This document shows positions 16,943 to 59,283 of a DNA stretch of 64,000 nucleotides, one piece after another. Within the stretch, counting starts at the first letter, position 1. Each line of letters starts with the position of its first letter. Position numbers and translations under genes: made by a program. The notes below the pieces were generated by a model. It did not search any database. It worked only from the letters and a program-made list of their open reading frames with translations, and was not told the origin of the DNA. Location: NCBI GenBank assembly GCA_963697355.1, contig CAVONV010000023.1:1459780-1523779 (forward strand), written 5' to 3'. Origin of the DNA: an uncultured Acidobacteriota bacterium. Its GTDB lineage: Bacteria; Acidobacteriota; Vicinamibacteria; Marinacidobacterales; DATDRI01.

Positions 16943-16998
16943 GCACCCAAGCACTCGAGCAGAGGTAATCCGAATTCTCGAGTTCTTGAGTTCTGATC
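16943..16998. repeat. Octamer-array locus 1 (…CACTCGAG…GAATTCTCGAGTTCTTGAGTTCTG)
   Basis: Direct reading. Lies between the PnuC stop and the kinase ATG. Confidence 0.8.
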
Positions 16999-17000
16999 TA

Positions 17001-17555
17001 ATGAGTCGCAAAAATACACCCCGACGCATTGTCCTGATTGGTCCGGAGTCCACCGGCAAAACCTGGCTTGCCGGCAAGCTTGCGGCGCGATACAAGGTCC
17101 CCTCATCGCCCGAGTACGCGCGAGAGTACGTGGAGGCTGGGTCGGGGCCGCTCAGCTACTCGGACGTCGACGCCATTGGCCGTGGTCAAAAGGCAGGGGA
17201 AGATACCGTGCTCGCCCAGGCGGTTGAACGTGGCTTGACGCTGGTTGTCCTCGACACGGACCTCGTGAGCACGATGGTCTACGCTCGCCACTACTACGGC
17301 GCTTGCCCTGAATGGATCGAGCAGGAAGCACCCGAACGTCTCGGAGACCTCTACCTCCTTCACCACATCGACGTCGAGTGGAAGGCCGACGGCCACCAAC
17401 GTGAGGAACCGGAAAGACGCGAGGAGCTTTTCGACCTCTTCCGGTCGACGCTGCGGGAGCTCGGCGCTCGGGTGAAAGATGTCGAGGGATCATGGGAGGC
17501 GCGAAAGTGCAGTGCCATCGAAAGTGTCGACTATTTGCTTGCTGCAGGCCCTTGA
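17001..17555 (+). CDS. NadR-like AAA-family ATPase / small-molecule kinase domain protein
   Basis: P-loop IVLIGPESTGKTWLA. Overall resemblance to the ribosylnicotinamide-kinase domain of NadR. Confidence 0.75.
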   Translation: MSRKNTPRRIVLIGPESTGKTWLAGKLAARYKVPSSPEYAREYVEAGSGPLSYSDVDAIGRGQKAGEDTVLAQAVERGLTLVVLDTDLVSTMVYARHYYGACPEWIEQEAPERLGDLYLLHHIDVEWKADGHQREEPERREELFDLFRSTLRELGARVKDVEGSWEARKCSAIESVDYLLAAGP

Positions 17556-17618
17556 GTAGCGGTGATCACAGAGGAGACCCGAGGCATCAGTCGTTAGTCG
17601 GGTCAACCTGGCTCCGAA

Positions 17619-18008
17619 TCAAGGGAGGCGGGTGAATCCTGACCAAAGGTCGAAGTCTTCATCGCAACTCAAGATTCGTTCGATACCATGGCGCTCCATA
17701 GTCGCAATGTGGAGGCAATCCCGCCCAGATAATCGTTTCTGCATCTCTGCGACGGTACGCGCTCGGGAGACGTCTTCCTTTGTGATCGGATAAACATATT
17801 GGACCAGGCTGTCCAAGAACGCGAAGCAGTCTGCAATTGCACTTCTTCGATCGATGGCGATGTAGCGGTGGATAACCTCTTGATAGACCTCGGCGCTTGT
17901 AACGAAAGTCTCCTCTGCGTTTGATCGTATGAACGACGCCAACTTCTCGCGATTTGGGTGAGGTTGTCCCACTAGGTACATGGGGACATTGGAGTCAACG
18001 AAGATCAC
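17619..18008 (-). CDS. vapC: VapC PIN-domain toxin
   Basis: IFVDSNVPMY at the N-terminus, conserved acidic residues, 129 aa. Overlaps the antitoxin by 14 nt. Confidence 0.85.
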   Translation of the reverse strand: MIFVDSNVPMYLVGQPHPNREKLASFIRSNAEETFVTSAEVYQEVIHRYIAIDRRSAIADCFAFLDSLVQYVYPITKEDVSRARTVAEMQKRLSGRDCLHIATMERHGIERILSCDEDFDLWSGFTRLP

Positions 18009-18243
18009 GACCGTGCTCGATATCGCTCAGCATTTCCTCAATGGGGGCCGTGGGGTAGCTGCAGCGCAGGGCCTTCTCCAAGGCGTCCAGTTTCCCCTCC
18101 TGAGTCGGACCAAGCTGACTTTTCTGGGCACGCCTTAGGGCGCGACGTGCCCACTCGCTCAGAGTCATCCCTTCTCGCTCAGCACATCGCCGAAGCTGCT
18201 CGGCCTCGTCATCGGGAACGATAATCTGAAGGCGCTTACTCAT
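17995..18243 (-). CDS. vapB: Ribbon-helix-helix (CopG/VapB-type) antitoxin
   Basis: MSKRLQIIVPDDEAEQLRRCAEREGMTLSEWARRALR is a typical RHH N-terminus. Confidence 0.75.
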   Translation of the reverse strand: MSKRLQIIVPDDEAEQLRRCAEREGMTLSEWARRALRRAQKSQLGPTQEGKLDALEKALRCSYPTAPIEEMLSDIEHGRDLR

Positions 18244-18321
18244 ACGTATGAGTATACTACAAATAGTGACTAAGGTCATCACTGTTCGGTCGAAGCGTGG
18301 AAAGACTCGGGAGAAGCCGAG

Positions 18322-18372
18322 CTCAAACAAAAAGGAGCTCACCTGCCCGGAGGGAATGGGGCAGGTGAGCTC
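18322..18372 (-). terminator. Rho-independent terminator after the ABC ATPase gene
   Basis: GGAGCTCACCTGCCC (18334-18348) pairs with GGGCAGGTGAGCTC (18359-18372). Minus-strand tail is CTTTTTGTTTG. Confidence 0.6.
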
Positions 18373-18396
18373 TGCTGCCCGCGGTGCGGCCAGTGA

Positions 18397-19098
18397 CTAG
18401 GCGACTTTTACTTTCTCCTCGACGATGCGTCCGTCAAAGAGATTGACCGTGCGGTCGGCGTACTCCGCATATCGAGGGTCGTGCGTGACCATGCAGATCG
18501 TGGCTCCACTCTTGTGTAGTTCGTTGAGCAGTTCCATCACGGCTTCACCGTTGGTCGAGTCCAGGTTGCCCGTCGGCTCATCGGCAAGAAGAATGGAAGG
18601 CTCGCCGCAAACCGCCCGGGCGACGGCCACACGTTGTTGTTGACCCCCGGAGAGCTGAGATGGGTAGTGCTTCATCCGATGTGCCATACCTACTTTCTCG
18701 AGCGCCGCTTGGACTTTCTCTTTGCGTTCCGAGGTGGGCATTCCTCGGTAGGTGAGAGGCAGCTCGACGTTCTCGTAGACCGTCAAGTCACCGATCAAGT
18801 TGAAGGCCTGGAAGATGAAACCGACTTCACGGTTGCGGATCCGAGCACGCTCCGATGTCTTCAGTTCGGCCACCGAACGATCGTTGAGCCAGTAGTTGCC
18901 GTCCGTCGGTGAGTCCAGTAGACCCAAGATCGATAGCAACGTGGACTTACCGCATCCGGATGGCCCCGAGATAGCAATGTACTCACCCCTTTTGACCGTG
19001 AAGTGAATGTCCGACAGTGCATGGGTCTCCACCTCATCGGTGTAGAAAACCTTCTTGAGTCCTTCCATCTTCAACAGTGCATCAGCCGCTTCGGTCAT
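18397..19098 (-). CDS. ABC transporter ATP-binding protein (MacB/LolD/FtsE-type)
   Basis: Walker A GPSGCGKST, signature LSGGQQQRVAVARA, Walker B ILLADEPTGNLD. Confidence 0.9.
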   Translation of the reverse strand: MTEAADALLKMEGLKKVFYTDEVETHALSDIHFTVKRGEYIAISGPSGCGKSTLLSILGLLDSPTDGNYWLNDRSVAELKTSERARIRNREVGFIFQAFNLIGDLTVYENVELPLTYRGMPTSERKEKVQAALEKVGMAHRMKHYPSQLSGGQQQRVAVARAVCGEPSILLADEPTGNLDSTNGEAVMELLNELHKSGATICMVTHDPRYAEYADRTVNLFDGRIVEEKVKVA

Positions 19099-19117
19099 TG
19101 TTGTTAACCCTCCCTAA

Positions 19118-19174
19118 TCTTGATTCTTCCATTCTTGAGTCTTGAGTACTCGAGTACTCGAGTGCTCGAGTACT
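19118..19174. repeat. Octamer-array locus 2 (…TTCTTGAGTCTTGAGTACTCGAGTACTCGAGTGCTCGAGTACT)
   Basis: Direct reading. Fills the gap between the adaptor stop (19180) and the ATPase RBS/start (19098). Confidence 0.85.
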
Positions 19175-19179
19175 ATCTT

Positions 19180-20433: not shown

Positions 20434-20876
20434 TTCAACTCCTCCACCATGTGTATATGCGCAAATGACGTGCCATTTGTTCCCTAAAAAGTTGAACTCG
20501 TTGAGTGACCACTACATACATAGACGTAACGGGAGTCCATAAGGTTTGCGGAAATAGATATTTGTCCCGGATCGGGAAGGTCCTTCCCGAAATCGGACAG
20601 CCGAACCTGTTGGTTCGCGAGGCGGGACAGGCTAGTTTGGTGTCAATCCCATCGAGGCTCTAGCGAGCGCACGGGCAAGGATTCGCCTTTTGTCCTCAAA
20701 ATATACGTTGATTTTGCTAAATCAGTTAACAATGCGGCTCGGTTTTGTTCGCTAGTTCGTATTTGTTCGGCACCGCAAATGGCGGACATCACTTCATGAA
20801 TGGGTGTAACATCCCGTTAAAGCTATGTTAACATTGCATTAATATGTGGAGCATGCCTGTCGGGAGGAGGTTCACC

Positions 20877-24096: not shown

Positions 24097-24108
24097 TTTG
24101 TCCGTTCG

Positions 24109-25179: not shown

Positions 25180-25224
25180 GAATTCTCGAGTCTCGAGTCT
25201 TGAGTTCTTGAGTACTTGAGTACC
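25180..25224. repeat. Octamer-array locus 3 (GAATTCTCGAGTCTCGAGTCTTGAGTTCTTGAGTACTTGAGTAC)
   Basis: Direct reading. Confidence 0.85.
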
Positions 25225-25276: not shown

Positions 25277-26548
25277 CTATGCCCTTATCTTTCTAAACAC
25301 CTTCCTACAGAAGTCCTCTTCGAACTGCTCGTTGCTCTCGTAGGCGAAGCCAAAAGTGGATCGCCAGAGCTCGGCCTTCTCCATACAAAGGTACATGAAG
25401 ACCTTGCCATGCCACGGTGTGAGAGCCTCGAAGGCGGCGGAGAACATTTCCTGCTTGATCGGTTCAGGATAGGACAGCTTACCCTTGGCACCGGGCACCA
25501 AATCCATCTGCAGCATCTTGGTGGGACGCGCTCGACGACGTATGGCTTGGATGACGGGCTTGATGAATGTGACCGACCCGAACGAAACAAAGGCGACCTC
25601 GTTCGGTTGAAACTGCCGAAGAAGCTCTCCGGTAACCTCGAGGTAGTCCCGTTTCCAGTTTTCATAGAAGACGAGCGGATGAAAATGAAAGGCCACTTTG
25701 ATTCCACGATCCGCCACCCGGCGAGCCGCAGATAGTCGTTCATCCAAGGACGCCGTGAAGTGCTCCTCGTTCTCGATGATCGTGGGACTGTTCAGAGACC
25801 AACTGGGGACTATGTTCGGCGGGATGTCTCTTTCGAGCAAGTAAGCCACGTTCTTCGACTTGGTCTTGAGCTCCAACAAGACGTTGGGACGCTCTTCGGC
25901 AAAATCACGAAGTGCATCCAGCAGTCCGTGCCGGTTTCCCCACATCATCGCATCGGACGATTGACCGGTGCCCAAGTGGATCAACCGTTTCGAATCGAGC
26001 TCGATGCTCTTCAGCTTCTCTTTGAGACCCGCGTCTATGACGACGCTGTCGTCATAGAAGGTCTGAATCGTGCAGTAGCTGCACCCAAAACCGCAGTTTT
26101 CCACGGCATCGATGGTTCTCAAATTGCAGCAGACGGTCTCTTCGGACGCCACAGGGCACATCCCGACGACGTTTTTTTTGAAGATCTCGTCCTTGACATG
26201 CAGGTGATGGGACTCTGGTTTTGGGAGTCCGCCAAAGGGGTAGGTTTTCTCGGCACCGCGAAGAGACTGTAGCCAGTCGTCCAAACGCCGGAGCAGTGTT
26301 TTCTTTGCAGCCCGGCCCCGGCCTTCGATGGTATCCTCTTCCCGTTCCCACCATGACATCAGAGAACGCTCGCCCCACATCTCGAGGTCGAGAGCGGCTT
26401 CTGAGACGAGCCTCAACTCCTGGAACGTGAATCGGTACCTGCGCGCCCGGTCGAGAAAGAACTCCTGCTGGTCCGGGCCGAGACGATTGAGTAAGGTCCG
26501 CTCTCGGTGGACCGCCAGTTTTTCTTCGTAGCTCTTCTGGGTTGCCAT
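25277..26548 (-). CDS. Spore-photoproduct-lyase-like radical SAM protein (COG1533-type)
   Basis: CGFGCSYC (CxxxCxxC) cluster motif. Overall resemblance to the SplB-like family. Start at MATQKSY; the upstream 147 codons of the ORF look non-coding. Confidence 0.75.
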   Translation of the reverse strand: MATQKSYEEKLAVHRERTLLNRLGPDQQEFFLDRARRYRFTFQELRLVSEAALDLEMWGERSLMSWWEREEDTIEGRGRAAKKTLLRRLDDWLQSLRGAEKTYPFGGLPKPESHHLHVKDEIFKKNVVGMCPVASEETVCCNLRTIDAVENCGFGCSYCTIQTFYDDSVVIDAGLKEKLKSIELDSKRLIHLGTGQSSDAMMWGNRHGLLDALRDFAEERPNVLLELKTKSKNVAYLLERDIPPNIVPSWSLNSPTIIENEEHFTASLDERLSAARRVADRGIKVAFHFHPLVFYENWKRDYLEVTGELLRQFQPNEVAFVSFGSVTFIKPVIQAIRRRARPTKMLQMDLVPGAKGKLSYPEPIKQEMFSAAFEALTPWHGKVFMYLCMEKAELWRSTFGFAYESNEQFEEDFCRKVFRKIRA

Positions 26549-27086: not shown

Positions 27087-27840
27087 GCGCATCTTGGTGG
27101 TCGACGACGAAAAAGTCGTTCTCGGCGCGGTTAACGAGGCTCTCAAAAAGACGGACTATCGAATCGAAACGGCGGAAAGTGCCGAGGCGGCCTTGAACCA
27201 ACTCAACGACGTCCGGTACGACGTGGTGATTACAGATCTGATGATGCCGGGTATCGATGGCCTGGAGCTCATGGAGATCTTGCGCAAGAAGGGGACCGAC
27301 ACGCGGGTCATCGTTATCACGGGATACCCTTCCGTCGATTCGGCGCTCGAAGCCAAACGCCTTGGGGCATTCGAGTATGTTACCAAACCGTTTACCCGTC
27401 AGGAGCTTCTCAGCGTCGTCGTTCGCGCCCTGCGCCATGGAGAGGAGGCCGCGACACGAGGCGATTCGCCGCCGATGACCTCCACGGGAAAGATCTACAT
27501 GATTCCCGGCCATGCTTGGGTGCAGTTGGAGCCCGATCGAACAGCACGGATTGGGATGGCACCCTCATTTGCGTCGACGGTAGGTGAGGTAGAGGACATC
27601 GAGCTGCCTGCCGAAGACCAACTCTTGGAGCAAGGCCGGATGTGTGTCGTCGTGCGTGCGGCGGACGGGGTAGAGCACTATTTGCAGTCGCCCTTGAGCG
27701 GAAGAGTTCTCGAGATCAATCGGATGGCCGGCGATGAGCCGGAGTTGGTCGTGAGAGATCCGGTGGATAGTGGGTGGCTGATCCGTTTGGAGCCGCAAGC
27801 GGTGGAGAAAGAGCTACCGAATCTGGTGGAAAAAGAATAG
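27079..27840 (+). CDS. Response regulator: REC domain fused to a GcvH-like (lipoyl-fold) domain lacking the lipoyl lysine
   Basis: RILVVDDE...DVVITDLMMPGIDG...KPF, then HAWVQLEPDRTARIGM...CVVVRAADGVEHYLQSPLSGRVLEIN...EPELVVRDPVDSGWLIRLEP (GcvH pattern with R in place of the ESVK lysine). Confidence 0.8.
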   Translation: MGKRILVVDDEKVVLGAVNEALKKTDYRIETAESAEAALNQLNDVRYDVVITDLMMPGIDGLELMEILRKKGTDTRVIVITGYPSVDSALEAKRLGAFEYVTKPFTRQELLSVVVRALRHGEEAATRGDSPPMTSTGKIYMIPGHAWVQLEPDRTARIGMAPSFASTVGEVEDIELPAEDQLLEQGRMCVVVRAADGVEHYLQSPLSGRVLEINRMAGDEPELVVRDPVDSGWLIRLEPQAVEKELPNLVEKE

Positions 27841-29429: not shown

Positions 29430-29478
29430 ATTGATTCACAAGCTCCTATGTGGTTGTACGTCAGCCAAATCCGCTTCT

Positions 29479-29513
29479 GAAGAACTCGAGAACTCGAGAA
29501 CTCAAGAACTCAG
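29479..29513. repeat. Octamer-array locus 4, reverse orientation (GAAGAACTCGAGAACTCGAGAACTCAAGAACTCAG)
   Basis: Direct reading. Confidence 0.85.
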
Positions 29514-42142: not shown

Positions 42143-42198
42143 CTCGACTGCTCGACTGCTCGACTGCTCGACTGCTCGACTGCTCGACTGCTCGACTG
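42143..42198. repeat. Seven perfect tandem copies of CTCGACTG
   Basis: Direct reading. Lies between convergent stops at 42101 and 42208. Confidence 0.9.
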
Positions 42199-48175: not shown

Positions 48176-49269
48176 TCGGCTGTAGCAGCCTCGATGATTT
48201 TCAAAGCCAACTCGAGCCGGTCTCCGGCGTTTTGAACGTTGCACATGATGGCAACGGCCAGCTTACTCTCCGGTTGCCTCAGGAGAAAGGTGCTGCCTCC
48301 CGTGGCTCCGCCCCCGTGATTGATCCATCTCCGGCCTTGGTCGTCTTTGTAGATCGACCACCCAAGCCCGTAGTTCGTCTCATTGCCGTCGGCCAGTTTG
48401 AAGGGCGTGTACATCTCCTCCAACGTCTCGGGTTGGAGGAGCTTGCCCGTGTTCAAGGCAATATGGAAGCGCGCCAAATCTTCCGCGGTAGAAATGATGC
48501 CACCACCAGCCCACTTGATGCTGAGGTCGGCAAACGGGGCGTTCTCGACCGCTCCATTGGGACCCGCCTTGACATATTGCCGCGCCCGGTGGGGCACGAT
48601 CTCACCTTGATGCTCGAGACGTGTCACGGTCATACCCGCCGGTCCCCAGACGTGTTCCTTCATATAGGCCTCGAATGTGAGTCCCGAGGCCGCCTCCACG
48701 ACGCCGGCCAAGAGGTTGTAGGCATAGCTCGAGTAACTGTATAGAGTTCCCGGCGTGAAAAGCAGCGGGTCGTCTTTGAAGATTTCGATGGCTTCTTCCA
48801 CCGAATAGAAGTGGTCTTTCATATCCATCTCCCCGGGTTTGTAGTGGCGGACACCCGAGGTATGAGACATGACGTTTCGGACCGCGATCTCGAGAGGTTT
48901 TTGGGGAAAGTAGGATACGTATTTCTGAATGGGGTCGTCGATGTCGACACGCCCCTGCTCGACAAGCTGCATGACGGCCGTGGCCGCCATCGGTTTGGAT
49001 ATGGAGGCAATGCGGTAGACGGTATTCGCTTGCGCAGGGACTTGGTTCTCTACATCAGCGAGCCCGAAACCCTTGGCCCAAACCAACTCGTCGTTCATCA
49101 CCAGTGCCACGGAAATGGCTGGTGTCCCGAACTCCTCCTTGGCTTCCAAAACGATTTGCTCCACTTTGGCGAACGAATCCTTGTCTTTGGCTTGGGCAAC
49201 ACTTGTCAGCAGAAATACGAACAGCAAGGTGAGTGACATCGTCAGTAGCGAACCACCCTTAATTCTCAT
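48169..49269 (-). CDS. Secreted serine hydrolase (class C beta-lactamase / transpeptidase-like)
   Basis: Signal peptide. SxxK motif in YRIASISKPMAA. Y.N-like YSSYAYNLL. Confidence 0.85.
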   Translation of the reverse strand: MRIKGGSLLTMSLTLLFVFLLTSVAQAKDKDSFAKVEQIVLEAKEEFGTPAISVALVMNDELVWAKGFGLADVENQVPAQANTVYRIASISKPMAATAVMQLVEQGRVDIDDPIQKYVSYFPQKPLEIAVRNVMSHTSGVRHYKPGEMDMKDHFYSVEEAIEIFKDDPLLFTPGTLYSYSSYAYNLLAGVVEAASGLTFEAYMKEHVWGPAGMTVTRLEHQGEIVPHRARQYVKAGPNGAVENAPFADLSIKWAGGGIISTAEDLARFHIALNTGKLLQPETLEEMYTPFKLADGNETNYGLGWSIYKDDQGRRWINHGGGATGGSTFLLRQPESKLAVAIMCNVQNAGDRLELALKIIEAATADQ

Positions 49270-50362
49270 TCGTCACCTCTTTCCAGACTCGCATGAAGTT
49301 ACCACCCATCACTTTTCCCACTTCCTCATCGCTATAGCCGTGGTCGAGCAGCGCTTCGGCAATGGCTAGAAAATTGGCTTCTTCTCCGAAGCCTTCCGTG
49401 TAGCTACTCATTCCTCGTAGGTCGCTGCCGATGGAGGCGTGATCGACGCCCACGAGCTGCTTGACGTGGTCGATGTGCTCGACCAAATCCGCCATCTTGG
49501 GGAGGGTGTCGCCACTTGGCCAAATGCCGATGAGACCCCCTTTCGCTGAGATAGCCCTAATCTCGCCGTCCGTCAGATGCCGGTCGCCTTCCTCGAGAGC
49601 GTTGCACTCCGTGTGGCTGAACAGCACGGGATGTGTCGATATGGCGAGTGTATCCATAATGGTCTGGGTGTTGGCGTGGGCCAGATCGATCAAGATTCCG
49701 AGCCGATTGCATGCCTTGACGGCTTCTTCGCCGAACTCCGTCAAGCCGCCGGGAGAGTAAGGGTAAGTTTGGATGTGCCCGAGTGCGTTGGCACGAAAGT
49801 GAACGGGCTGTAGGAGACGGAGGCCCTTGTCATAGAGCTTTTCCAGATTGTCGATACGGGCTTCCAGTCCGTCGCCGCCTTCGAGTGCAGGTAGCAATGT
49901 GAGCTTTCCCTGCTTTCTGGCTTCGAGAACCGCCGAGGGGCTGGCGGCGAGCGCCGCGTCGCCATCTTCGATGTTTTTCATGATGCGGTCGAACCGGTCA
50001 AGGGTGAAGGCGAAAGGCTCGCCGGGCTTCGGACGATGTCCGTCTTTACGGCCGATACGGTTGCCGCCTTCGATCCTCGTTCCGTCGCGCTCGATGTAAT
50101 TGCCGGTGTAGATAGCGTCGGTGCTGACGCAGCAGACGACGACATCGATGAGCGAGCGTTGGTAGCGTGCGATCTCCTCCAGATCGATCTTTGGTACGTT
50201 GGCACGGTGAAAACGACTCGGATGTGAATGCGTATCGGCAAAAACAAACTGTTCGTGTATCTTCTCGATCCTCTTGGAGACATCCGTCCTCGCAGCCCAC
50301 CCGACAACAGATATGACGGCAAGGGTGACGAAAAAAGGAATCAACGCTCTTTTCGATGACAT
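49259..50362 (-). CDS. Membrane dipeptidase (peptidase M19)
   Basis: FADTHSHP, DLAHAN and FSHT metal-ligand contexts. N-terminal anchor. Confidence 0.8.
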   Translation of the reverse strand: MSSKRALIPFFVTLAVISVVGWAARTDVSKRIEKIHEQFVFADTHSHPSRFHRANVPKIDLEEIARYQRSLIDVVVCCVSTDAIYTGNYIERDGTRIEGGNRIGRKDGHRPKPGEPFAFTLDRFDRIMKNIEDGDAALAASPSAVLEARKQGKLTLLPALEGGDGLEARIDNLEKLYDKGLRLLQPVHFRANALGHIQTYPYSPGGLTEFGEEAVKACNRLGILIDLAHANTQTIMDTLAISTHPVLFSHTECNALEEGDRHLTDGEIRAISAKGGLIGIWPSGDTLPKMADLVEHIDHVKQLVGVDHASIGSDLRGMSSYTEGFGEEANFLAIAEALLDHGYSDEEVGKVMGGNFMRVWKEVTNEN

Positions 50363-50377
50363 TTGACTGTCTCCTCC

Positions 50378-50433
50378 TTGTTCTTGAATTCTCGAGTTCT
50401 TGAGTTCTTGAGTTCTTGAGTTCTTGAGTTCTA
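50378..50433. repeat. Octamer-array locus 6 (TTGAATTCTCGAGTTCTT(GAGTTCTT)x3 GAGTTCTAG)
   Basis: Direct reading. The last unit contains the CapA stop codon (50431-50433). Confidence 0.9.
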
Positions 50434-51798
50434 GTTTGTGGCCTTCGCCCCCAAGCTCACCACTCCGATCCCGTCCCGGAAAGTGATTTCCGTCCCGAAT
50501 GGCTTGGACAATCGCTGCAAATCTCCAATGATCTTTTCCGCCAATTCGCCGGTCGCAAGCATCGGGCGGCCACGAACCGTGGAGGGTTTGCCGTATCCGA
50601 GCGTGATGGGATGAAGCTCGACGGCGGAAAGCTCACCGTCTCTGAACTTCGGCATGGCGATGACGGACTCCCAGATCTCCGGTGTCGCGGGGAATCCACT
50701 GCGGTCGTTGTCATAGCGGGCGGCGTTGAAGTCGGACCCGTGGGTATTGGGGCCCAAACCGTATCGCTCATAATTCTCATGGGGCAAACGAAGGACGGTC
50801 TCGTTTTGAAACATGAAATCGCCCAGGCTGTAGAAGACGGGTTTCCCTTTGTAGATCTCGATGCCGCGCAGGACGTGAGGTCCGTGGCCGAGTACGACAT
50901 CTGCGCCTGCGTCGACCATCGCCTTTGAGAACTCCACGAGGAAATCAGCAGGGATGTCTCGGCTGCCTTTGCTTTCGTGCCCGTGGACGGCCACGATGGT
51001 GTAGTCGGCAAGACCGGCAGCGTTTCTTACGACGGCCGTAATCTCTTCGACATCTTCGCCATTGGCCTTCATTCGCACCTCGGGTTTGTCCCCGACAACG
51101 AAACGATTGCGGAGGACGGTAAGCTCATCGCCGGATTCGGGGACTCTTTGTCCCAGTCCCTTCAACATGTCACGAAGGGTCTCGAGTTGCTCCCGGGTGA
51201 CCACATAGGTCGTGTCGTAGCGTAGAGGATTCAAACCGGGTCTCGCCGGTATGTCACCTCGGGACTTGCCGGCTCGGGCGTGATCGGGAAACGTCGAAGC
51301 GACGGAGATCAAGGCGACCCTTCCTTCGGCGGCCTCCAGGAACTTGGCTTCTCGGGCTTGCATGAGGCTATCGCCGGTTCCGGCCGCAACGATACCAGCT
51401 TCCCGAACGTGCCGCATGGTCAACTGCATGGCCGGGACCCCGTAGTCCCCCGTGTGGTTGTTCGCGAGTGAACCGATGTCGAAGCCCGCCCACGCCAGTT
51501 CTTTCGCAAGCTCTGGCTCGGCACGCATGTACGTGCCGCCACTCTCGTTCATCGGATAGGACTCGTAGTCGTGGAACAACATCTCGATGTTGGTGAAGGC
51601 GACGTCTGCCGTTCGAATGAGCTTGATCATCTCGAGGAATTCGGTTTCCTCATAGACGGATAGCTTTCGGGTAATGATCGAATCACCCGTAAGCGCCATC
51701 GTGAGTGTGTCGTCGGATGCGGTCGATTGGGCGTAACTTGGGAAGCTCGCGAACAAGGCTCCAACGACCAGCAGGACAACAAGGCTCGGTGTTCTCAT
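50431..51798 (-). CDS. CapA-family (PGA_cap metallophosphatase-like) protein
   Basis: Signal peptide MRTPSLVVLLVVGALFASFPSYA after GGAGG. LTGDSI...NHTGDYG...VAVHGHE motifs. Confidence 0.8.
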   Translation of the reverse strand: MRTPSLVVLLVVGALFASFPSYAQSTASDDTLTMALTGDSIITRKLSVYEETEFLEMIKLIRTADVAFTNIEMLFHDYESYPMNESGGTYMRAEPELAKELAWAGFDIGSLANNHTGDYGVPAMQLTMRHVREAGIVAAGTGDSLMQAREAKFLEAAEGRVALISVASTFPDHARAGKSRGDIPARPGLNPLRYDTTYVVTREQLETLRDMLKGLGQRVPESGDELTVLRNRFVVGDKPEVRMKANGEDVEEITAVVRNAAGLADYTIVAVHGHESKGSRDIPADFLVEFSKAMVDAGADVVLGHGPHVLRGIEIYKGKPVFYSLGDFMFQNETVLRLPHENYERYGLGPNTHGSDFNAARYDNDRSGFPATPEIWESVIAMPKFRDGELSAVELHPITLGYGKPSTVRGRPMLATGELAEKIIGDLQRLSKPFGTEITFRDGIGVVSLGAKATN

Positions 51799-52031
51799 GG
51801 TTACCTCCGCGTCAATCTGAGACAGCATTCAGTGTCGTCACGAGACTCGAGGAAATACTATATCCGGTGAGCGGGTTCGCTGCAAATTGATAACAGAGAT
51901 GGGTTTAGCCAGCAGATTGCAATGTCCCGAGACTGTTGCCTCCGTCTCTGGCTGGACGAGAGGTTTGCCTATGCCAAGTACCTGGACGTCTTGAAGGACG
52001 CGGTCTGAATCCTCAAAAACTGACCCCAAAT

Positions 52032-54176
52032 CTATTTCTGCGGAGTCGACGGATTTTTCAGTTGTCCCATGAGGGTCTTGATCTGCTCTTGATTGGGGTC
52101 GAGCTCTAAAGAGCGTTCGAGGTAATGAATGGCTTTATCGGAATTGCCTTGTTGTGCGTAAGACACGGCCAGGGCGTTGAAGAGTGACGTATCCGGCGGG
52201 CGCAGGATGAGCGCTGCTTCGTAGAGCTCGGCGGCACGTTGGAAGTTCTTCACCTCGAAGTGGGCGTCACCCAAAGTCAAAAGGACCGGCACGCTCTCTC
52301 TATTCTGGGCGTAGGCGGGTTCGAGTAGTTTGATCGCTTCTACAGGACGTTTTTCGTCGAGCTGGTAGCGCGCCAAAACGACGCGAGGTGTCGTCAGATT
52401 GGGGTTGTCGTCGAGAGCCTCTTGATACAGTTCTCTAGCCTTGGCTGAATCGCCCAACTGAAGGTACTGCTCTGCCAAGGCGGCCTTGACGAGACCGACA
52501 TCTTCACCGTTGATACTCTCCCGCATCACCCACGGACGCGGGATCTCGGTTCGAGGGGTAACGTCGACGTCGGCCGTCGTGGTCTCGAGGGTCGTCCCGG
52601 AAGGATCGAGCAGCTCGGCGACCAGGCGGTAGTGACCTCCTGTGATTTCAACAAGGGGCATGCGTTCCACGATGGGTCTCCCCTCGTACTTCACCAAAGG
52701 TGATTGCTGTTGAGCGATCGTTCGAGGCGGGTCTTCCTGGTTCACGAGACGAAGTCGGAGTTGATGCTCCGGGCTCGCGTTGTCGATGGGAACAAAGGCT
52801 GTTAAGGCTTCTCCGATCACGAAGGCCCGCTTGGCATTGGGCTCGAGTCTGAGCGACCCGAACTGGTACGTCCGATAGGCGTTGGTTGCTTCCGAGTCCG
52901 ACATCTCACCGGTTCCGTAGAGGAGGATCGGTGCCCCGAGAAAAGGCGCCTCGGTTCGAGCCGGGACATGAAGCTCGGTCTCGAAAATGGTGTACTCGCT
53001 CCGTGCTTGATTCTTCAGCACGACGCGGAAGCGAAAGTCACCTTCTGCCAGTGGAAACATGTCCCGATAGGAAAACGGTCGACTGTAGACACCTTGGAAC
53101 TGGGACTCGGTAAGCCTTATGAAGGGCTCTTTTGTGAACTGGTAGATGGGCTTGTCTTCTTCGGGTGTCGTGACCTCACCCCTCAACTCGAAGCGGGTGT
53201 AATAGACGCCTGCGTCGGGATCCTTTGCGAGTGTCATATGTTGGGGCTCGATCTCGACACTGTAATGAACAAAGCTCGTTCCTCCGGGACCGGCGATGAC
53301 ATTGGCCACAGCGAAGTTCGGTACGTAATTGAAGATGTACTCGCTCTCCACGAGGCCACGGGCTTCGTCGGCCGCATCGAGATAGCTGATGTCCACCTTT
53401 TTGAAAGGGGACTCGTAGATGTCCGAGAGGAGAAGTTGGAAGTCGAGACTCGAAACGTCGGATTGGTGGAGCCCGGCAAAGGGCCCCTGATCGGCGCGCA
53501 TCGTAATGGTTGCGTGTGCCAGTTCGGGAGAGATCTGCTGGAGAAGGTCGTAAGCATCCCTTCGGGAGTTCTCCGGGTCGAGCGGTTGCGAAGGCATAAG
53601 GTCTTCGGGCTGATCGAGGACATGGTTGAAGAGTCGATAAGCACCCGCGTTGTTGTCTCTGAAGAATAGGAGGTAGAGCGGTGGCAGACTCTTCTCCTTG
53701 TTAGCCTGGTAAAACCACACTTCGGTGGGGTAGAGCCATCCCACGCTCAAGAACGTCTCGCGGTCGTCCGGTTCTCCAAGGATGATGGCCATCTTGCCCC
53801 GGTCGGTCATCCAACCCGGCACGGAGGACTCGCGGCCAAGGTACGTGTTGGCGTACTCGAGACGACGGTAGTGCTCCTCTTTGAACTCGTTCACGGGTGT
53901 CAGAGAATCGGGATCTCGCCGACGCCAAAAGGCCTGAATGAATGCCTCCCACTCCTCCACCGACTGAAGGTTGAGGAAAGCATCCTGCTCACGAGGCGTG
54001 ATGATATATGTGACTTCTTTTTCTAACCAGTCTCTGTATTTTTCCGGCATCCGCTCGAGCCGTTCATCCTTGGCCGCGCTGGTTGTCGCTGCGACAAGAC
54101 AAGACGCCACGAATAGAGCCACCAAGACTGTTTTACTACCCACGTTGATCGACCCTTGTTGTAACCCCATGAGCAT
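52032..54176 (-). CDS. GWxTD-domain protein with C-terminal TPR repeats
   Basis: FWRRRDP...VPGWMTDRGKMAIILGEPD matches the GWxTD domain. The last ~200 aa are TPR-like. Confidence 0.85.
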   Translation of the reverse strand: MLMGLQQGSINVGSKTVLVALFVASCLVAATTSAAKDERLERMPEKYRDWLEKEVTYIITPREQDAFLNLQSVEEWEAFIQAFWRRRDPDSLTPVNEFKEEHYRRLEYANTYLGRESSVPGWMTDRGKMAIILGEPDDRETFLSVGWLYPTEVWFYQANKEKSLPPLYLLFFRDNNAGAYRLFNHVLDQPEDLMPSQPLDPENSRRDAYDLLQQISPELAHATITMRADQGPFAGLHQSDVSSLDFQLLLSDIYESPFKKVDISYLDAADEARGLVESEYIFNYVPNFAVANVIAGPGGTSFVHYSVEIEPQHMTLAKDPDAGVYYTRFELRGEVTTPEEDKPIYQFTKEPFIRLTESQFQGVYSRPFSYRDMFPLAEGDFRFRVVLKNQARSEYTIFETELHVPARTEAPFLGAPILLYGTGEMSDSEATNAYRTYQFGSLRLEPNAKRAFVIGEALTAFVPIDNASPEHQLRLRLVNQEDPPRTIAQQQSPLVKYEGRPIVERMPLVEITGGHYRLVAELLDPSGTTLETTTADVDVTPRTEIPRPWVMRESINGEDVGLVKAALAEQYLQLGDSAKARELYQEALDDNPNLTTPRVVLARYQLDEKRPVEAIKLLEPAYAQNRESVPVLLTLGDAHFEVKNFQRAAELYEAALILRPPDTSLFNALAVSYAQQGNSDKAIHYLERSLELDPNQEQIKTLMGQLKNPSTPQK

Positions 54177-54280
54177 GTTCGTCTCCCTTTACAAACTCGT
54201 TGTATGCGATTTTACCACAACCAAGGAAAGTCAATGAATGGAACTATTTCCGGAGTGCGGTTCGCCGGTCTCATGTCTGC

Positions 54281-54335
54281 AATTCTTGAATTCCTGATTT
54301 CTTGAATTCTCGATTTCTTGAGTTCTTGAGTTCTT
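54281..54335. repeat. Octamer-array locus 7 (..GATTTCTTGAATTCTCGATTTCTTGAGTTCTTGAGTTCTT)
   Basis: Direct reading. Confidence 0.85.
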
Positions 54336-54337
54336 TC

Positions 54338-54799
54338 CTAAAACCTATAGAGACCCCAAAACATTAACTTGAGCATGATGCGGGAGCTCACATCGTAGCC
54401 TCCTTCGGCGCTCCAGAAGATCTCGTCTCCGTAGCTGATGCCGTCTTCTTCTTTCTTCGTGCGGAATTTGGTGCCGATGAGGCCGGTGATGTAAGCAGGA
54501 CGGGGCCAGAACGAATGGGGCAGCTCGCCTTTGACCTCGAAATCATACTGTCCTTCTCCGACGGGTATGATCTCGGCATCGTTGACGAACTCTCCAGTGG
54601 GGAACTTGACGCGTCCCCCGATGGTCGCGACGAGGGGACCACTGAGGATGTTGTAGCGCGCTCCGACGCGAACGTCACCGATGCCGTTGGACTGCCGATC
54701 GTCGGCCAGATCATTGAAAGCAATGCCAAAGAAGGGCAGATGGGCGTTGACTTCCAGCCTCTCTGTAAGTCCGTGCTCGAAGTCGAAGAAGAAACCCAT
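54338..54799 (-). pseudogene. C-terminal ~150 aa of an outer-membrane beta-barrel (N-terminal half missing)
   Basis: GFFFDFEHGLTERLEVNAHLPF...IMLKLMFWGLYRF has a barrel strand pattern and a terminal aromatic residue. The upstream part of the ORF is antisense to the DUF3179 remnant. Confidence 0.55.
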
Positions 54800-54829
54800 C
54801 GTGCGATTGTGGCCTCGCAGTCGATTTGC

Positions 54830-55444
54830 GGAGCGCTCCAAGGAACGACTCCTAAGTTGTTGCCCGTGGCGCAGATGAGCTGGCAGGCTTGGAAGGCACT
54901 CTACCTCGAGACGACCGTCGTCAGTCAGAATACGGGTTTCGACCGCAACTACGATCGGTATCCTTATGGTGACTACGGCGAAGTCAACACTAACGATCTC
55001 CTCTTTCCTCAAAGCACCGTCGATACCCGGCTTCCCATGAAGGATACGGTCCTTGGCATTAGAAACGAGGGGGCACCACGCGCTTGCTCCATGAGTTTGT
55101 TGAGCCGAGGGGACGGCAGAAGGGTCATCAATGACGACGTCAATGGGCTGCCCGTCGTCGTGGTTTACGACCGGGGGTCAGAAATGCTGTTGGCTTTCTC
55201 CCGCAAACCCAGCGATCCCACCATGGCGGAAGAGATGACGCTCAGCTTCGAGCTCGTCGACGAGGGGACGTTCCCCTTCAAACTGCGAGACCAAGAGACG
55301 GGCAGTCGTTGGAACTTGAAGGGCGAGGCTATCGAGGGAACTTTAGCCGGCGCCGAGCTCCAGCCTCTATTGGATTCCTTTGTTGCTTTTTGGTTTGCGT
55401 GGGCAGCTTTTAGTAGTGGAAGTGAGATTTTCGAAGCACAGTAA
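54830..55444 (+). pseudogene. C-terminal half of a DUF3179-family protein (N-terminal half missing)
   Basis: WQAWKALYLETTVVSQNTGFDRNYDRYPYGDY...DTRLPMKDTVLGI matches the distal DUF3179 pattern. The proximal HE..ND / CPLC region is absent. Confidence 0.55.
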
Positions 55445-55445
55445 G

Positions 55446-55485
55446 GAATTCAAGAAATCGGGAAATCAAGAAATTGAGAATTCGG
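55446..55485. repeat. Octamer-array locus 8, reverse orientation (GAATTCAAGAAATCGGGAAATCAAGAAATTGAGAATTC)
   Basis: Direct reading. Confidence 0.8.
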
Positions 55486-55623
55486 AAGGCGCAGCTTAAC
55501 TCACTGAAACCACCGATGCAGGGTCCATCATCGACGGCACTTGTCGCCCCGTGGGTATGGATAGCATACAATTCGCGACTCAACTCTTCTAATACTGACA
55601 AATAAATAGTAGGGACAGCCGAC

Positions 55624-57896
55624 TCACTGAGGAGCGATTTGTCCCGTTTCCCTGAGAATCCTGTAGAGTTCGTCTCCCTTCGCGAGATAAAAGTCGTAAT
55701 TCGTTTTATCTCCGCGCTTCGCGTAGATTTCCATCAGAATCTGATAGCCCTGAAGTGTGTATCGGTCCCGAGGTTCTATCCGGACTCCCTTCTTACAGAG
55801 CTCTATCGCCTCATCGAGATTCTCGTTTCGGGCGAGGTTATACTTGGCAATCATGAAATACCCCATATTGAATCGAGGGTTCGCCTGAACGGTGCTCCGA
55901 TAATATTGGATAGCCTCTTCATGGTTGCCAAGTTCTCTCAAATCGTTGGCCAGATTGTATGAGGATCGATAGTCGTCGGGATAGTTCTCCAGTTCTTTCT
56001 TGTAATAAACGATGGCGGCTCTCACATCGCTTTTGGCTTCTTCGATGAGCGCCAAGGTGAAATAAGAGCCCTTTGACCTCGGATTGATATGGAGCGCCCG
56101 CCCGATGTAGGACTCCGCTGCGGGGTAATCCTTCCGCATGGCGTGAATCTCTCCAAGCTTGCTCAAGGCTGAAGAGCTCTCTTCGATGCGGATGGATTCC
56201 TCTAGAAACTTGACGGCATTGTCGTAATCCTTTTTGTAAAAGTAGGCGAATCCCAGCATCTCCAAAAGATTGTGGTCCTCCGGATAGACCGCGAGAAACG
56301 CTCCCGCTTCTTCTATGGCCTGATCGAGCTCACCGAGATTGAGAAGAGCGGCGACGACTTCGAACTTGGCGAAATTGTCATCGGGCTTGAGTCTAAGCAC
56401 ATGGCGTTGGCTCCCGAGTGCCTCTGCGTGCATCCCCTTCGCATAATAGCACTGCCCCATGAGCGTGTGGGCGCGAGCCATGTCGGGCTCTTCGGTGATG
56501 ATGGCTTTCAACATGTCCATCGCCTCGTCATACCGTCTTCTATTTGACGAGCTCGGTGGCTTTATCAATGGCGTTGAGGACAGCGAGCTTGTCTTTGGGA
56601 TCCGGCAGATCATCTTCCCCGTCAACAGCAGCTGAGTCAGTGACGTATCCCAAAGCCTCCAACCTCTGTCTGTCTTCTTCATCGAGGAGGTTCGCGGCTG
56701 GAGAAAGGCCGTCAACGGACTTACTCGCAATGAAGCTCTTTAACTCCTCGTCTAGCTCGCGCCTTTCAGCAGAATGCGTCTCGGCAAGGTTTTTCTCCTT
56801 CTCTCTCGTCTTCATCCAGATTATAGAGCTCCTCGTCCGGTGCCCATATGTACTTCCAGTCTTCTCGATACAGGGCTCGCAGCTCGGACCAACCGTAGTG
56901 GAGCCTCGGGTAGAATGTTTCCGTGTAAGCCGTGCCCCCTTCTTTAGGCTCATCTCCGAACATGCGACCTAAAAGTGACTCTCCCTGATACGAGTCCGGT
57001 ATGGGAATCGCAAGAGCATCGAGAATGGTCGGCGCCAGATCGACGAGCTCCACGAGACCCCGGACTCTGCCTACAGGGAATCGGAAAGGGGCCCGTATCA
57101 CCAAAGGAACCCACACAGTGGATTCATAAATGAAGTAGCCGTGTCCCTGCTCACCGTGTTGTCCCAGGCCTTCTCCATGGTCCGAGGTCACAATGAGCAG
57201 GGTTTTGTCGAAAAGCCCCTGCTCCTCGAGGAAGTTGACGAAATTTCCCACCGCATGATTGACATACTCCACCTCCCCCCGATAGGGCTCGTCCGGGTAC
57301 CTGTCGAAGGGGGGCGGCGGAACATAGGGACTGTGCGGCTCGAAGAGATGAATCCAAGTGAAGAATCGGGGGCTCTTGTTTGTCCGCAGCCACGTCTTGG
57401 CCTCTTCCAGTACTTCCTCCGCGGGCTTCTCGTTCTCTAGTAACATGCTCCCGTACGTCGTTCGATCGAAGTCATCCGAGTACATGTCGAAACCCTGATT
57501 GATCCCCCACTTCGAATGGAGGACGAAGGCGGATATGAACGCGGAAGTCGCGAACCCCCTTTCCTGCAGGACCTCGCTGGCCAACCTCAACGTGCCAGGC
57601 ACCATGAAACCGCCGTTGTCGTTGACTCGGTGGTGAAGAGGGTATGTTCCAGAAAGAATCGTGACATGGGAAGGCAGAGTCAACGGAACCTGGGCTATAC
57701 ATCTCTCGAACAAAACGCCCTCTTCCGCCAGGCGATCGAGATGAGGCGTACTCGCCCTTCCGGCTCCATAAGCACTGACAAAATCGGCTCTCAGCGTGTC
57801 GATAGTGATGAGTATGACGTTGAGATCCTCGAGGCCGCTCTTGGACCGGTCATCATTCCGCTCCCCGCTAAAGCTGAAGAAGAGGTATAGGATCAA
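55624..57896 (-). pseudogene. Sulfatase-like hydrolase fused to C-terminal TPR repeats, interrupted by two +1 frameshifts; start codon unclear
   Basis: Pieces 56766..57896 (ITIDTLRADF, TLPSH, SDHGE), 56540..56953 and 55624..56730 (TPR) continue one another (..LYNLDEDREKEKNLA.., ..KATELV/NRRRYDEAMDML..). The TM segment KKKLWAPLGGCLGLALILYLFF lacks an upstream start. Confidence 0.7.
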
Positions 57897-58017
57897 AGCA
57901 AGCCCGAGGCATCCACCCAGAGGTGCCCAAAGCTTCTTCTTCGGTGAAGGCTCGATGCTTCCAATTTGATTCTTTCTTACGTTCTTGCACCGCCGGCTAC
58001 CTCAGGGTGACAGTAAA

Positions 58018-59061
58018 TCATTTCGTGAGCTCCGGTACGTTGATGGAAATGCAATGTAAAGACCCGTTCTTTTGGATGATTGTGGATGCATCGATTTGTA
58101 CGATCCGCCGGTCCGGTAGCAAGTCGGTGTAGATTTCGAGAGCCTTCTCATCCAACTCGGGGCTGACATCGGGGTAGGCGGGTATGAGAAGCGTATCATT
58201 GGCGAAAATAACATTGGTGTAAGTCCGCCACTTTCCGTCTGCGTGGCTGGGCATGGGGATACGGTTCACCTTCATCGGCCCGGCTCGGGTTTGAGCTTTT
58301 GACAATTGCGCCGCCGCCTCGTCGAGAAGGCGAGCGTTGACGGGGTCCTCTTTCGCATCCAATGCGCCCACGACGGCGGTGTCGCGTGCCACGAGTGTCA
58401 TGAATATGTCGATGTGTTGGGTGGGCTCGCCGGACAGCGGCTCGAATACCATCCAATGCTCGGCCCCGTAGTAGCGCCGCAAAAGACCGCCAATCTCTTC
58501 CTGGCTGACACCATCCCTCATGTTGAACGCAATGACCTGTGTGGTGGTGAAAAGCCACCCTTCACCGTTCGCGAGCAAGTTGCCGCCGTTCAGTCGGAGG
58601 GGGACATCGGCGACGGGGAGCTTGAAGTACCCGGCCAGATAGCGAGGGATCCAGTCATCGGGCATATGGTCCCTACGGATGTAGAGAGCGTCTAGAGCCA
58701 TGAACTGCCCGTCGGGCAGCCGAATGAAAGACGGGCCGAAATCGCGGATCCACATGCCGACCACGGGAACTTCGGCTAGATGAAGGTTTTTGGCTGAAAC
58801 CCCGGCTTTGTCGAGGTGCTGGATGACGTCTGTATATTGAACATGATCCCCCACCACGCCGACGATCGGTATCTTGCCGTCCAGTGCCGTTACGATATCG
58901 ACGAGCGTCTTAGGATGGTGCTGAATGAGCTCACCAAAGCCCAGGACCAGCGCTTCGCACGGTTCGAACTCCGGATAGAGCCCAAGGATCTCGTTCTGCG
59001 ATTGAGCCTGCGAGGTAGCATTGATGAACGACAGGACGATGAGTAGTGACGAAAGCCGCAT
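58018..59061 (-). CDS. Agmatine deiminase / PAD_porph-family protein, secreted
   Basis: Signal peptide MRLSSLLIVLSFINATSQA. WIRDFGP, GGNLL and C-terminal GSLHCIS catalytic Cys context. Confidence 0.8.
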   Translation of the reverse strand: MRLSSLLIVLSFINATSQAQSQNEILGLYPEFEPCEALVLGFGELIQHHPKTLVDIVTALDGKIPIVGVVGDHVQYTDVIQHLDKAGVSAKNLHLAEVPVVGMWIRDFGPSFIRLPDGQFMALDALYIRRDHMPDDWIPRYLAGYFKLPVADVPLRLNGGNLLANGEGWLFTTTQVIAFNMRDGVSQEEIGGLLRRYYGAEHWMVFEPLSGEPTQHIDIFMTLVARDTAVVGALDAKEDPVNARLLDEAAAQLSKAQTRAGPMKVNRIPMPSHADGKWRTYTNVIFANDTLLIPAYPDVSPELDEKALEIYTDLLPDRRIVQIDASTIIQKNGSLHCISINVPELTK

Positions 59062-59080
59062 GGTGGATTGATTGTACCAG

Positions 59081-59128
59081 AATAGAGAACTCAAGTACTC
59101 GAGCACTCAAGCACTCAAGTACTCAAGC
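59081..59128. repeat. Octamer-array locus 9, reverse orientation (AATAGAGAACTCAAGTACTCGAGCACTCAAGCACTCAAGTACTCAAGC)
   Basis: Direct reading. Confidence 0.85.
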
Positions 59129-59212
59129 ATGGAGAGGGCCCTCAAATGACCATAGGATCGTGGTTCTCTTTGGAGTCGACCGAACTACCTTGGTAGATCT
59201 TATTCCGGATCC

Positions 59213-59283
59213 GAATTCTCGAGTACTTGGGTACTGAGTTCTCTATTCTTGAGTGCTCGAGTTCTGAGTTCTTGAGTTCTAGT
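59213..59283. repeat. Octamer-array locus 10 (GAATTCTCGAGTACTTGGGTACTGAGTTCTCTATTCTTGAGTGCTCGAGTTCTGAGTTCTTGAGTTCTAG)
   Basis: Direct reading. Inverted relative to locus 9. Confidence 0.85.

Follow-up and report, generated by a model that had tools for sequence, protein, structure and literature searches.

The intergenic spacers of a 64-kb stretch of DNA from an uncultured Acidobacteriota bacterium (contig CAVONV010000023.1, 1.59 Mb long; the whole stretch is hereafter called the window) carry tandem arrays of an 8-nt unit, GAGTNCTY, which reads RAGNACTC on the opposite strand. Whole units are gained and lost in these arrays at a rate far above that of substitutions in the flanks, the arrays come and go between close relatives, and their unit recurs in unrelated phyla. 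We judge it somewhat better than an even bet that they form a genome-wide family of intergenic octamer microsatellites resembling the short tandemly repeated repetitive (STRR) sequences of cyanobacteria, driven by replication slippage, of little use to the host, and serving as landing pads for mobile elements.

Period-8 arrays were found with Tandem Repeats Finder at all nine loci for which an earlier note on this DNA had claimed tandem octamers. A lag-autocorrelation scan of the window gave strong periodicity at lag 8 in six regions and at lag 7 in one, and no strongly periodic region at lags 4-6 or 9-12. Searched with the probe (GAGTTCTT)2 at up to 3 mismatches, the window returned 25 matches, compared with 0.53 expected and a maximum of 3 in 100 shuffles; a degenerate three-unit profile recovered the same loci, with about 0.4 matches in block shuffles. 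The 64 kb hold 11-13 arrays, tandem and head-to-tail, and every one lies in an intergenic region outside the reading frames, as had been argued from their period. On a rough map of open reading frames (ORFs), about 28 intergenic gaps between 16.9 and 64 kb measure at least 50 nt, and about 10 of them, roughly a third, hold an array. The flanking genes are ordinary metabolic genes, and several arrays occupy convergent gaps or the spacer between a stop codon and a ribosome-binding site. Most arrays share a polar build in which, on the A-rich strand, homogeneous RAGNACTC units lead to an edge of GAGAATTC or AAGAATG. The edge motif reported earlier, GAATTCTCGAG, was matched exactly at four loci (16972, 25180, 50386 and 59213) and occurs as GAATTCTCGAT at 54304, and the array at 55446-55485 terminates in GAGAATTC. 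No rule links the orientation of an array to the direction of transcription: the strand corresponding to mRNA is A-rich at 19118, 25180, 50378 and 59213 and T-rich at 29479 and 59081, so that the independence noted before was borne out. Inverted pairs make up only 2 of about 11 loci.

Both inverted pairs had been listed differently in the earlier note, whose nine loci are all real. The first, given as a single array at 16943-16998, consists of a left arm at 16940-16964 (minus strand; A-type, with the three units CTCTGCTC GAGTGCTT GGGTGCTC in the minus-strand reading) and a right arm at 16972-16995 (plus strand; T-type, units GAATTCTC GAGTTCTT GAGTTCTG) that ends 5 nt 5' of the ATG of an AAA_28 gene (17001). 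Its two arms fold into a hairpin of -19.4 kcal/mol (z -1.3). The second, given as two separate loci, comprises an arm at 59081-59128 (minus strand; T-rich on the mRNA strand, directly upstream of a PAD_porph gene, with a terminator-like hairpin score) and an arm at 59213-59283 (plus strand; A-rich on the mRNA strand, following the terminator hairpin of a TonB-type outer-membrane protein gene), separated by an 84-nt core (59129-59212) that is the remnant of a four-helix-bundle (PF05635) gene cassette present in relatives. This pair folds at -81.5 kcal/mol (z -5.1). The list was also incomplete. It had missed a perfect (CTCGACTG)7 array at 42143-42198 (plus strand), equivalent to GACTGCTC in another register, whose unit differs from GAGTGCTC by a single mismatch in shifted register and is a one-mismatch variant of the family unit; a perfect heptamer array, (GAAAGTA)8.7, at 62947-63007 (plus strand), the only array of period 7 and different in word from the family; and a weak, degenerate three-unit candidate at 11487-11510 (minus strand; GGATACTC GACATCTT GAATTCTC, score 16 of 21).

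The remaining arrays stand singly. At 19118-19175 (plus strand), an array of GAGTACTC and GAGTGCTC units, A-rich as mRNA, lies inside an operon and fills the 81-nt gap between the stop of an HlyD-type adaptor gene (19180) and the start of an ABC ATPase gene (19098), both on the minus strand, as the earlier note had described. The array at 25180-25224 (plus strand) opens with GAATTCTCGAG and lies downstream of the stop of an SPL-like gene at 25277 (minus strand). Four units at 29479-29513 (minus strand), T-rich as mRNA, follow two terminator-like hairpins and precede a MaoC-like gene. The 6.6-unit array at 50378-50433 (plus strand) spans the distance between the stop of CapA and the ribosome-binding site of an M19 dipeptidase gene, and the end of its last unit supplies the CapA stop codon itself (50431-50433, TAG, minus strand), a detail that was confirmed and that also holds in two relatives. 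Two arrays are degenerate, one at 54281-54335 (plus strand; GAATTCTT, GATTTCTT and GAGTTCTT) in a divergent intergenic region and one at 55446-55485 (minus strand; GATTTCYY units with GAATTC on both edges) in a convergent one.

Close relatives of the window were found in ENA assemblies ERZ25039600 (sequences L178, L183 and L184, 93-99.6% identical to the window) and ERZ25039514 (L185, 86-92% identical), and in the Logan assembly of run ERR11523668 (L186). Arrays occur at the same positions in these independent assemblies and are therefore not assembly artefacts. Most of them are conserved in position in relatives 90-99.6% identical, yet nowhere does the alignment vary more, with whole-unit differences in most array comparisons at 99.2-99.6% flank identity. 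The 29479 array has 4 units in the window and 14 in L183 (98.5-99.6% identical). The segment at 25180 measures 66 nt in the window and 68 nt in L183, where its unit make-up is altered between flanks that are 99.6% identical; for the segment at 50378 the lengths are 71 nt (window), 48 nt (L184) and 55 nt (L185). At 42143 the segment including the array measures 70 nt in the window, 66 nt in L184 and 211 nt in L185, the last with about 25 units. In that region of L185 (18307-18393, about 91% identical) the array of about 25 units includes CAGTCAAG and CAGTTGAG variants. At 59081, where the window has 61 nt, L184 lacks one unit, and in L185 all units are GAGTTCTC and the segment is 8 nt shorter; at 19118, L178 has about one unit fewer, plus a GAGTCCTC unit. 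The degenerate arrays at 54281 and 55446 are identical in L184, which fits the prediction of slippage. Single-base homopolymer differences between the window (55480-55520) and L184, such as GGT-GG/GGTGGG and CTG-CG/CTGCCG, suggest long-read assembly error and call for caution with small length differences in arrays that are not whole units.

The earlier note had taken the shared edge as a sign of one element family rather than independent slippage products. The first half of that claim stands, on the shared unit and polar build; the second does not, since slippage-type change dominates. Common family and slippage are both true. Entire arrays are also gained and lost. The inverted pair at 16940-16995 is missing in L178 (94% identical), where the PnuC-like and AAA_28 genes lie 3 nt apart (TGA GCA GTG); in the window these genes are 92 nt apart and the ends of both are replaced relative to L178. 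At greater distance, 80 loci with 58-75% CapA identity (792 kb in total) held just 15 arrays of period 7-9, in related but different words (GAGTTCAA, GAGGTTCT, GAGGTCTT, CAGGAAC and AGAACCT), and no array was found downstream of CapA in the 16 best-matching of these 80 loci (relatives 60-75% identical).

The family extends well beyond these relatives. We scanned species-representative genomes for three tandem GAGTDCTY units and obtained at least 97 stretches, a sample of the taxonomic spread and not a measurement of it. Among the matches listed, many per genome came from two Chthoniobacterales, one Acidobacteriota, two Vicinamibacteria and four Pseudomonadales metagenome-assembled genomes (MAGs) and from one unclassified MAG with arrays of up to 28 units; Paenibacillus and Xanthomonas had lone long arrays. 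Polarity is common to most arrays in the other genomes, where on the A-rich strand homogeneous RAGAACTC units lead to AAGAATG or GAGAATTC. The Chthoniobacterales MAGs contain a composite element, (AAGAACTC)n followed by a conserved core of about 45 nt and (GAGTTCTY)n, in many copies and both orientations. The core reads AAGAATGGTGCGATGCGAAA..GGCGCGAGAC..TTGTTCTTCTT and was seen in either orientation in L025, L026, L040, L051, L062, L070, L019 and L039. A second octamer family, CGCCGAYA, occurs in the same Chthoniobacterales loci. Because several unit families coexist in this way, arrays of period 7-8 characterise these genomes, and GAGTNCTY is one recurrent family among several. In the Acidobacteriota MAG MFD03804.bin.2.150 (L011, L042, L071 and L043) the arrays are followed by a conserved AGAATG and a hairpin element (..CAGGAGGACGGC..GCCGTCGTCTTCCGGATT), which on the opposite strand resembles a terminator hairpin followed by a T-rich array; short ORFs directly after the arrays of this MAG (MKQEDG...) were rejected as genes and assigned to the hairpin element. 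The IMG/VR contig IMGVR_UViG_3300001533_002010 (L179), classed as viral, has three AAGAACNC arrays (587-639, 1678-1744 and 12700-12790) with the same AAGAATGAAGAATTGAGAATGAAGA edge.

A molecular partner of the arrays came to light in the relatives. The alignment of L183 with the window breaks exactly at 29477-29512, where L183 carries an insertion of about 2.0 kb with the gene for a protein of 441 aa that, like its homologues, has RVT_1 as its only recorded Pfam domain. The insertion matches the Rfam models group-II-D1D4-6 (RF02005, 50.7 bits) and group II intron domain V-VI (RF00029, 41.1 bits), and it splits the array in register, with nine units on one side and five on the other. Its reverse transcriptase (RT) belongs to a lineage of 7,792 database proteins at E <= 1e-50, the best 120 of which are 82-98% identical; some homologues were assigned by their sources to several different phyla. 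A search for the RT in viral contigs gave no match. We collected 18 further intron copies from unrelated metagenomes, falling into five RT sequence groups, and together with L183 14 copies had enough upstream flank for analysis. For 13 of the 14, periodicity in the 32 nt upstream was best at 7 or 8. The flanking unit is AAGAACTC in L183, AAGWATTC in L197 and L198, GGAATRAT in the marine copies L187-L193 (six of them with differing outer flanks) and GGAGTRAT in L196, all of period 8; it is CAGTRAA, of period 7, in L199-L202, and GCAGGAA-like, with no clear period, in L203 and L204. One heptamer beside the introns, RAACAGT, is close to the STRR3 unit CAACAGT. In L202 (1-2171) two tandem intron copies are separated by just 18 nt of (CAGTRAA) array.

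The intron appears to recognise the local unit by base pairing. A column block in intron domain I (UCUUGA, UCCAUU, UACUGU or UCCUGC) shifts together with the last six exon bases. In an alignment of ten sequences, pairing between intron-binding site 1 (IBS1) of the exon and exon-binding site 1 (EBS1) of the intron was found in 60 of 60 cells, five of the six pairs showed compensatory change, and covariation was 0.82 compared with at most 0.17 in slid controls. The contact is of the standard IBS1-EBS1 kind. In L183 the EBS1 is UCUUGA, which pairs with the motif UCAAGR found again at most junctions between units. Placing the 3' splice site after CTACTCGAAA, near the end of the Rfam domain V-VI match, leaves the exons in array register in all sub-lineages. 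A 3' end after AAAAY was tried and rejected, because the joined exons would be out of register; the 6-nt scar that this boundary predicts was searched for in the arrays and none was found. The window arrays offer 11 perfect CTCRAGAACTC sites for an EBS1 of the L183 type (one more match, the twelfth, falls outside them at 27714), and the exact junction form ACTCRAGGACYC was found in intron-free arrays of several genomes.

Arrays in relatives also flank small gene cassettes. In L184, a 120-aa gene of the PF05635 family (23S rRNA intervening-sequence protein, four-helix bundle) lies between the arms of the 59081-59283 pair, flanked by duplicated segments of array plus TTCGGATCCGGAG. The same locus has a 5'-truncated remnant of the gene in L185 and the 84-nt core alone in the window. 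L185 also carries another PF05635 gene, with an octamer array upstream and a (CTACTTT)n array downstream. The latter (L185 2640-2690) is the reverse complement of the GAAAGTA word of the window, and inverted copies bracket this second gene. Intervening sequences of 23S rRNA that encode the four-helix-bundle family are flanked by inverted repeats. Around a PF05635 homologue in an unrelated genome of low G+C content we found only short degenerate inverted repeats, so the link between cassette and array is local, not general.

According to the account that we favour, slippage-driven arrays with little host function, each array would grow and shrink in 8-nt steps by replication slippage and unequal recombination. 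The host would tolerate this, as an AU-rich, mostly unstructured intergenic spacer probably does little harm, and the variability of the arrays and the missing orientation rule suggest that they have no specific job for it. In relatives the arrays harbour mobile elements, and those of the window may likewise offer such elements safe landing pads. A widespread group II intron lineage, its reverse transcriptase matching only RVT_1, reads the array unit through EBS1 and sits in register; the four-helix-bundle cassettes are flanked by arrays, one of them by an inverted pair, and loss of such a cassette would leave a long hairpin, as at 59081-59283. Several points count against this account. Slippage cannot carry the same unit and polar edge to new loci or to distant phyla, and a dispersal step is missing. 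Arrays that abut ribosome-binding sites or the extended -10-like motif TGGTACAAT could affect expression. The window itself has no four-helix-bundle gene, and the intron is absent both from the window and from about 100 array loci of other genomes, which means that the landing-pad role holds for a small minority of arrays.

Three rival accounts address the missing dispersal step, namely seeding by the intron, the mobility of small cassettes and selection for a binding site. In the first, the intron would copy a few 5' exon units to each new site, where slippage would expand them and loss of the intron would leave the array behind; arrays would be by-products of its mobility and would travel with it between phyla. 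Such a scheme would explain why unit and polarity are shared across phyla. Every sub-lineage of the intron is flanked on both sides by a unit of its own that fits its EBS1; the intron copies examined have more units upstream than downstream, near-uniformly 2.5 upstream and 1-1.5 downstream in the six marine copies with differing outer flanks; the intron-bearing array of L183 has 14 units and its intron-free counterpart in the window 4; and RT identities of 82-98% among the best 120 homologues, with several source phyla, fit a recent horizontal spread. Yet the arrays vastly outnumber the introns, with none in the 11-13 arrays of the window or in the roughly 100 other loci. Arrays occur in both orientations, the variant units AAGTACTC, AAGCACTC and CAGTCGAG mismatch EBS1, and the uniform marine flanks are equally explained as a 20-nt homing site; moreover, that an intron of this kind co-copies exon sequence is an assumption. 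We therefore consider seeding by the intron improbable, if worth keeping in mind. To a wider version of the idea, in which arrays and intron lineage form one self-sustaining system (exon units are carried along, slippage expands them, and the arrays offer in-register homing sites for the next round), we likewise assign a low probability. If true, it would explain the presence of the same 8-nt word in unrelated phyla, and short-unit intergenic arrays, perhaps including those of the STRR type, would be retroelement footprints.

Might the arrays instead be cis-acting host elements, that is, protein-binding sites, hairpins for termination or RNA stability, or spacers that tune translation, with copy number as the tuning knob? 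Their placement tight against stops, ribosome-binding sites and the TGGTACAAT motif speaks for such a role, as does the conservation of their positions at 90-99% identity, and a unit common to distant phyla could mean a shared binding protein. RNA folding gave a divided picture. Strong hairpins are predicted for the inverted pair at 59081-59283 and for palindromic-unit arrays (z -2.3 and -2.8), and one array is terminator-like by score; T-rich and palindromic-unit arrays as a whole range from weak to moderate (z -1.2 to -2.8). The A-rich readings are unstructured, the 50378 array as mRNA among them (z +1.3). Self-complementarity of the unit RNA was considered as a common principle and rejected, since structure is confined to palindromic-unit arrays and inverted pairs. 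RNA-level roles are strand-specific, and the arrays follow no orientation rule. The B-DNA helix repeats every ~10.5 bp, and a period of 8 bp leaves successive sites off one face. Copy number and unit make-up vary freely between near-identical strains, one pair stands between genes that are only 3 nt apart in a relative, and moderately related genomes lack arrays at the same sites. The stretch scanned for promoters, 49000-63500, gave no promoter-like match on arrays. Rfam, one of the collections in which the earlier note had proposed to search, gave only a thiamine pyrophosphate (TPP) riboswitch in the window and no match on the arrays. TTGAGT was rejected as a -35 box, its spacing being 12 or 20 nt and not 17, and LexA (GTTC-N7-GTTC), CIRCE (AGCACTC-N9-GAGTGCT), TRAP-like and cold-shock-protein binding were set aside for misfits of spacing or symmetry. 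One RNA-level or promoter-level role for all arrays does not fit, and we regard a host function of any of these kinds as an outside chance.

Slightly less probable, in our estimate, is that the arrays are terminal inverted repeats or leftovers of cassettes comparable to miniature inverted-repeat transposable elements (MITEs), to doublets of repetitive extragenic palindromic (REP) sequences known as REPINs, or to intervening sequences, moved by an unseen transposase, with the single arrays as half-elements. The two inverted pairs would be expected from this, and the pair at 16940-16995 resembles inserted DNA of about 90 nt whose arrival also replaced the ends of the two neighbouring genes. The Chthoniobacterales composite, with its conserved ~45-nt core in many copies and both orientations, has the look of such an element, and both four-helix-bundle genes of the relatives are array-flanked, the core in the window being the remnant of one. 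Most window arrays, however, are single, with no partner nearby, and the cores share no sequence between genomes. We identified no target-site duplication, and neither a transposase nor a REP-associated tyrosine transposase (RAYT; Y1 HUH) gene among about 40 window ORFs scanned; the four-helix-bundle gene of the unrelated genome has only its short degenerate repeats. That the arrays are assembly or sequencing artefacts, as homopolymer-length differences and one Logan contig ending within an array might hint, is effectively refuted by three independent assemblies, including the Logan assembly of a public run, that place them at the same positions, by differences that are mostly whole units and reach about 18 units, and by the presence of the family in many unrelated public genomes.

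The analogy with cyanobacterial STRR arrays drawn in the earlier note was upheld. Both are genome-specific short words repeated in tandem at many intergenic sites, operon spacers included, in both orientations and with no established function. The STRR unit, however, has 7 nt, and the nine listed loci and 42143 have a unit of 8 nt; the host, to judge from its Acidobacteriota-like gene content, does not belong to the cyanobacteria; the unit recurs across phyla; and links to a group II intron or to four-helix-bundle genes were not found described for STRR. The heptamer arrays of Xanthomonas (GGGAATC) and Nostoc (GGGGAYT) are about 90% intergenic, show no strand preference, lie near gene ends and sometimes form inverted pairs, and in related species they are flanked by the same genes and vary widely in length and sequence (Rehm et al., 2015; PMC4692102). 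The window arrays are likewise intergenic, strand-neutral, conserved in position and variable in length. They differ in that the Xanthomonas and Nostoc units are G-rich, G-quadruplex-forming and of period 7, whereas GAGTNCTY lacks any G run and has period 8. Since period, word and host differ, the arrays are not members of the STRR or the Xanthomonas/Nostoc families.

Other classes of repeat resemble the arrays in part. REP elements, with the bacterial interspersed mosaic elements (BIMEs) and REPINs that they build, are also abundant intergenic repeats that often form hairpins as inverted pairs, and they sometimes serve as insertion sites for mobile elements. A REP, however, consists of one imperfect palindrome, 20-40 nt long and with a conserved head, in contrast to tandem octamers. 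A MITE-like conserved core of about 45 nt exists in the Chthoniobacterales composite; the window shows neither a conserved core nor a recognisable target-site duplication. Simple sequence repeats at contingency loci share the fast whole-unit change through slippage between close strains, but they are confined to a small number of surface or restriction genes, within the reading frame or between the -35 and -10 elements, and their units mostly measure 1-7 nt, whereas the window arrays lie outside frames and carry no promoter-like site in the stretch scanned. The window arrays belong neither to the REP elements nor to the G-quadruplex repeats or the contingency loci. The literature that we searched contains no report of this octamer family, in keeping with the earlier note's failure to recognise a described one, nor of intron homing into tandem arrays of 7-8 nt.

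For bacterial group II introns, a 2015 review names only three target specificities: homing sites, terminators and attC sites (PMC4424553). Homing into tandem repeats would on that count be a fourth. The introns of class C, which use terminators and attC sites, resemble the RVT_1-only lineage in preferring a repeated, harmless intergenic motif to a unique homing site; here, however, the target is a tandem array of 7-8-nt units read by a 6-nt EBS1, not a stem-loop. The pairing of intron and array is the newest element of this work, and its basis is the relatives and unrelated metagenome contigs, not the window. STRR and Xanthomonas heptamer arrays have been known for decades, with their origin and function left without explanation. 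To these the present analysis adds an octamer family whose word and polar edge recur in MAGs of Acidobacteriota, Verrucomicrobiota (Chthoniobacterales), Vicinamibacteria and Pseudomonadales; direct comparative evidence, at 90-99.6% identity, that few sites in the genome change faster than such arrays, which also come and go between close relatives; and a molecular partner, a widespread group II intron lineage whose EBS1 tracks the local unit and which sits in register in arrays of period 7-8. The question of what the arrays are for thereby becomes testable, and the arrays could be used as strain-typing markers for uncultured lineages.

The genes of the window fit the host assignment. Overall G+C content is about 57%, and CarboxypepD_reg-type TonB receptors, a GWxTD/TPR protein and MacB-type transporters are among the products encoded, a repertoire typical of Acidobacteriota; the M19 dipeptidase has its nearest named homologues, at 64% identity, in MAGs of Acidobacteriota and Calditrichota. 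The first part of the window (1-16900) has a higher G+C content, 59-65% in most 2-kb windows compared with about 52-60% in the remainder, and it has no clear array, the candidate at 11487-11510 being its only weak one. The TPP riboswitch (13778-13869, plus strand; RF00059, 62.7 bits) lies upstream of a TonB-dependent receptor gene (13950-16322), the PnuC-like transporter gene (16336-16908) and the AAA_28 kinase-like gene (17001-17555), and together they probably form a thiamine-uptake operon. The array pair at 16940-16995 separates the last two genes of this putative operon. Just beyond it, a PIN-domain gene and a ribbon-helix-helix gene (17619-18342, minus strand) are a likely toxin-antitoxin module.

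Two further differences from the relatives were seen. The DUF3179 ORF (54515-55444) is apparently a deletion chimera when compared with L185 2698-4574: window positions 54347-54815 match part of a MetA-pathway outer-membrane gene and 54815-55443 match the 3' part of the L185 DUF3179 gene, and the 5' parts of both divergent genes are gone. Between the GWxTD and CapA genes, L185 carries a Fic-domain gene (7098-8258) that is absent from the window and from L184.

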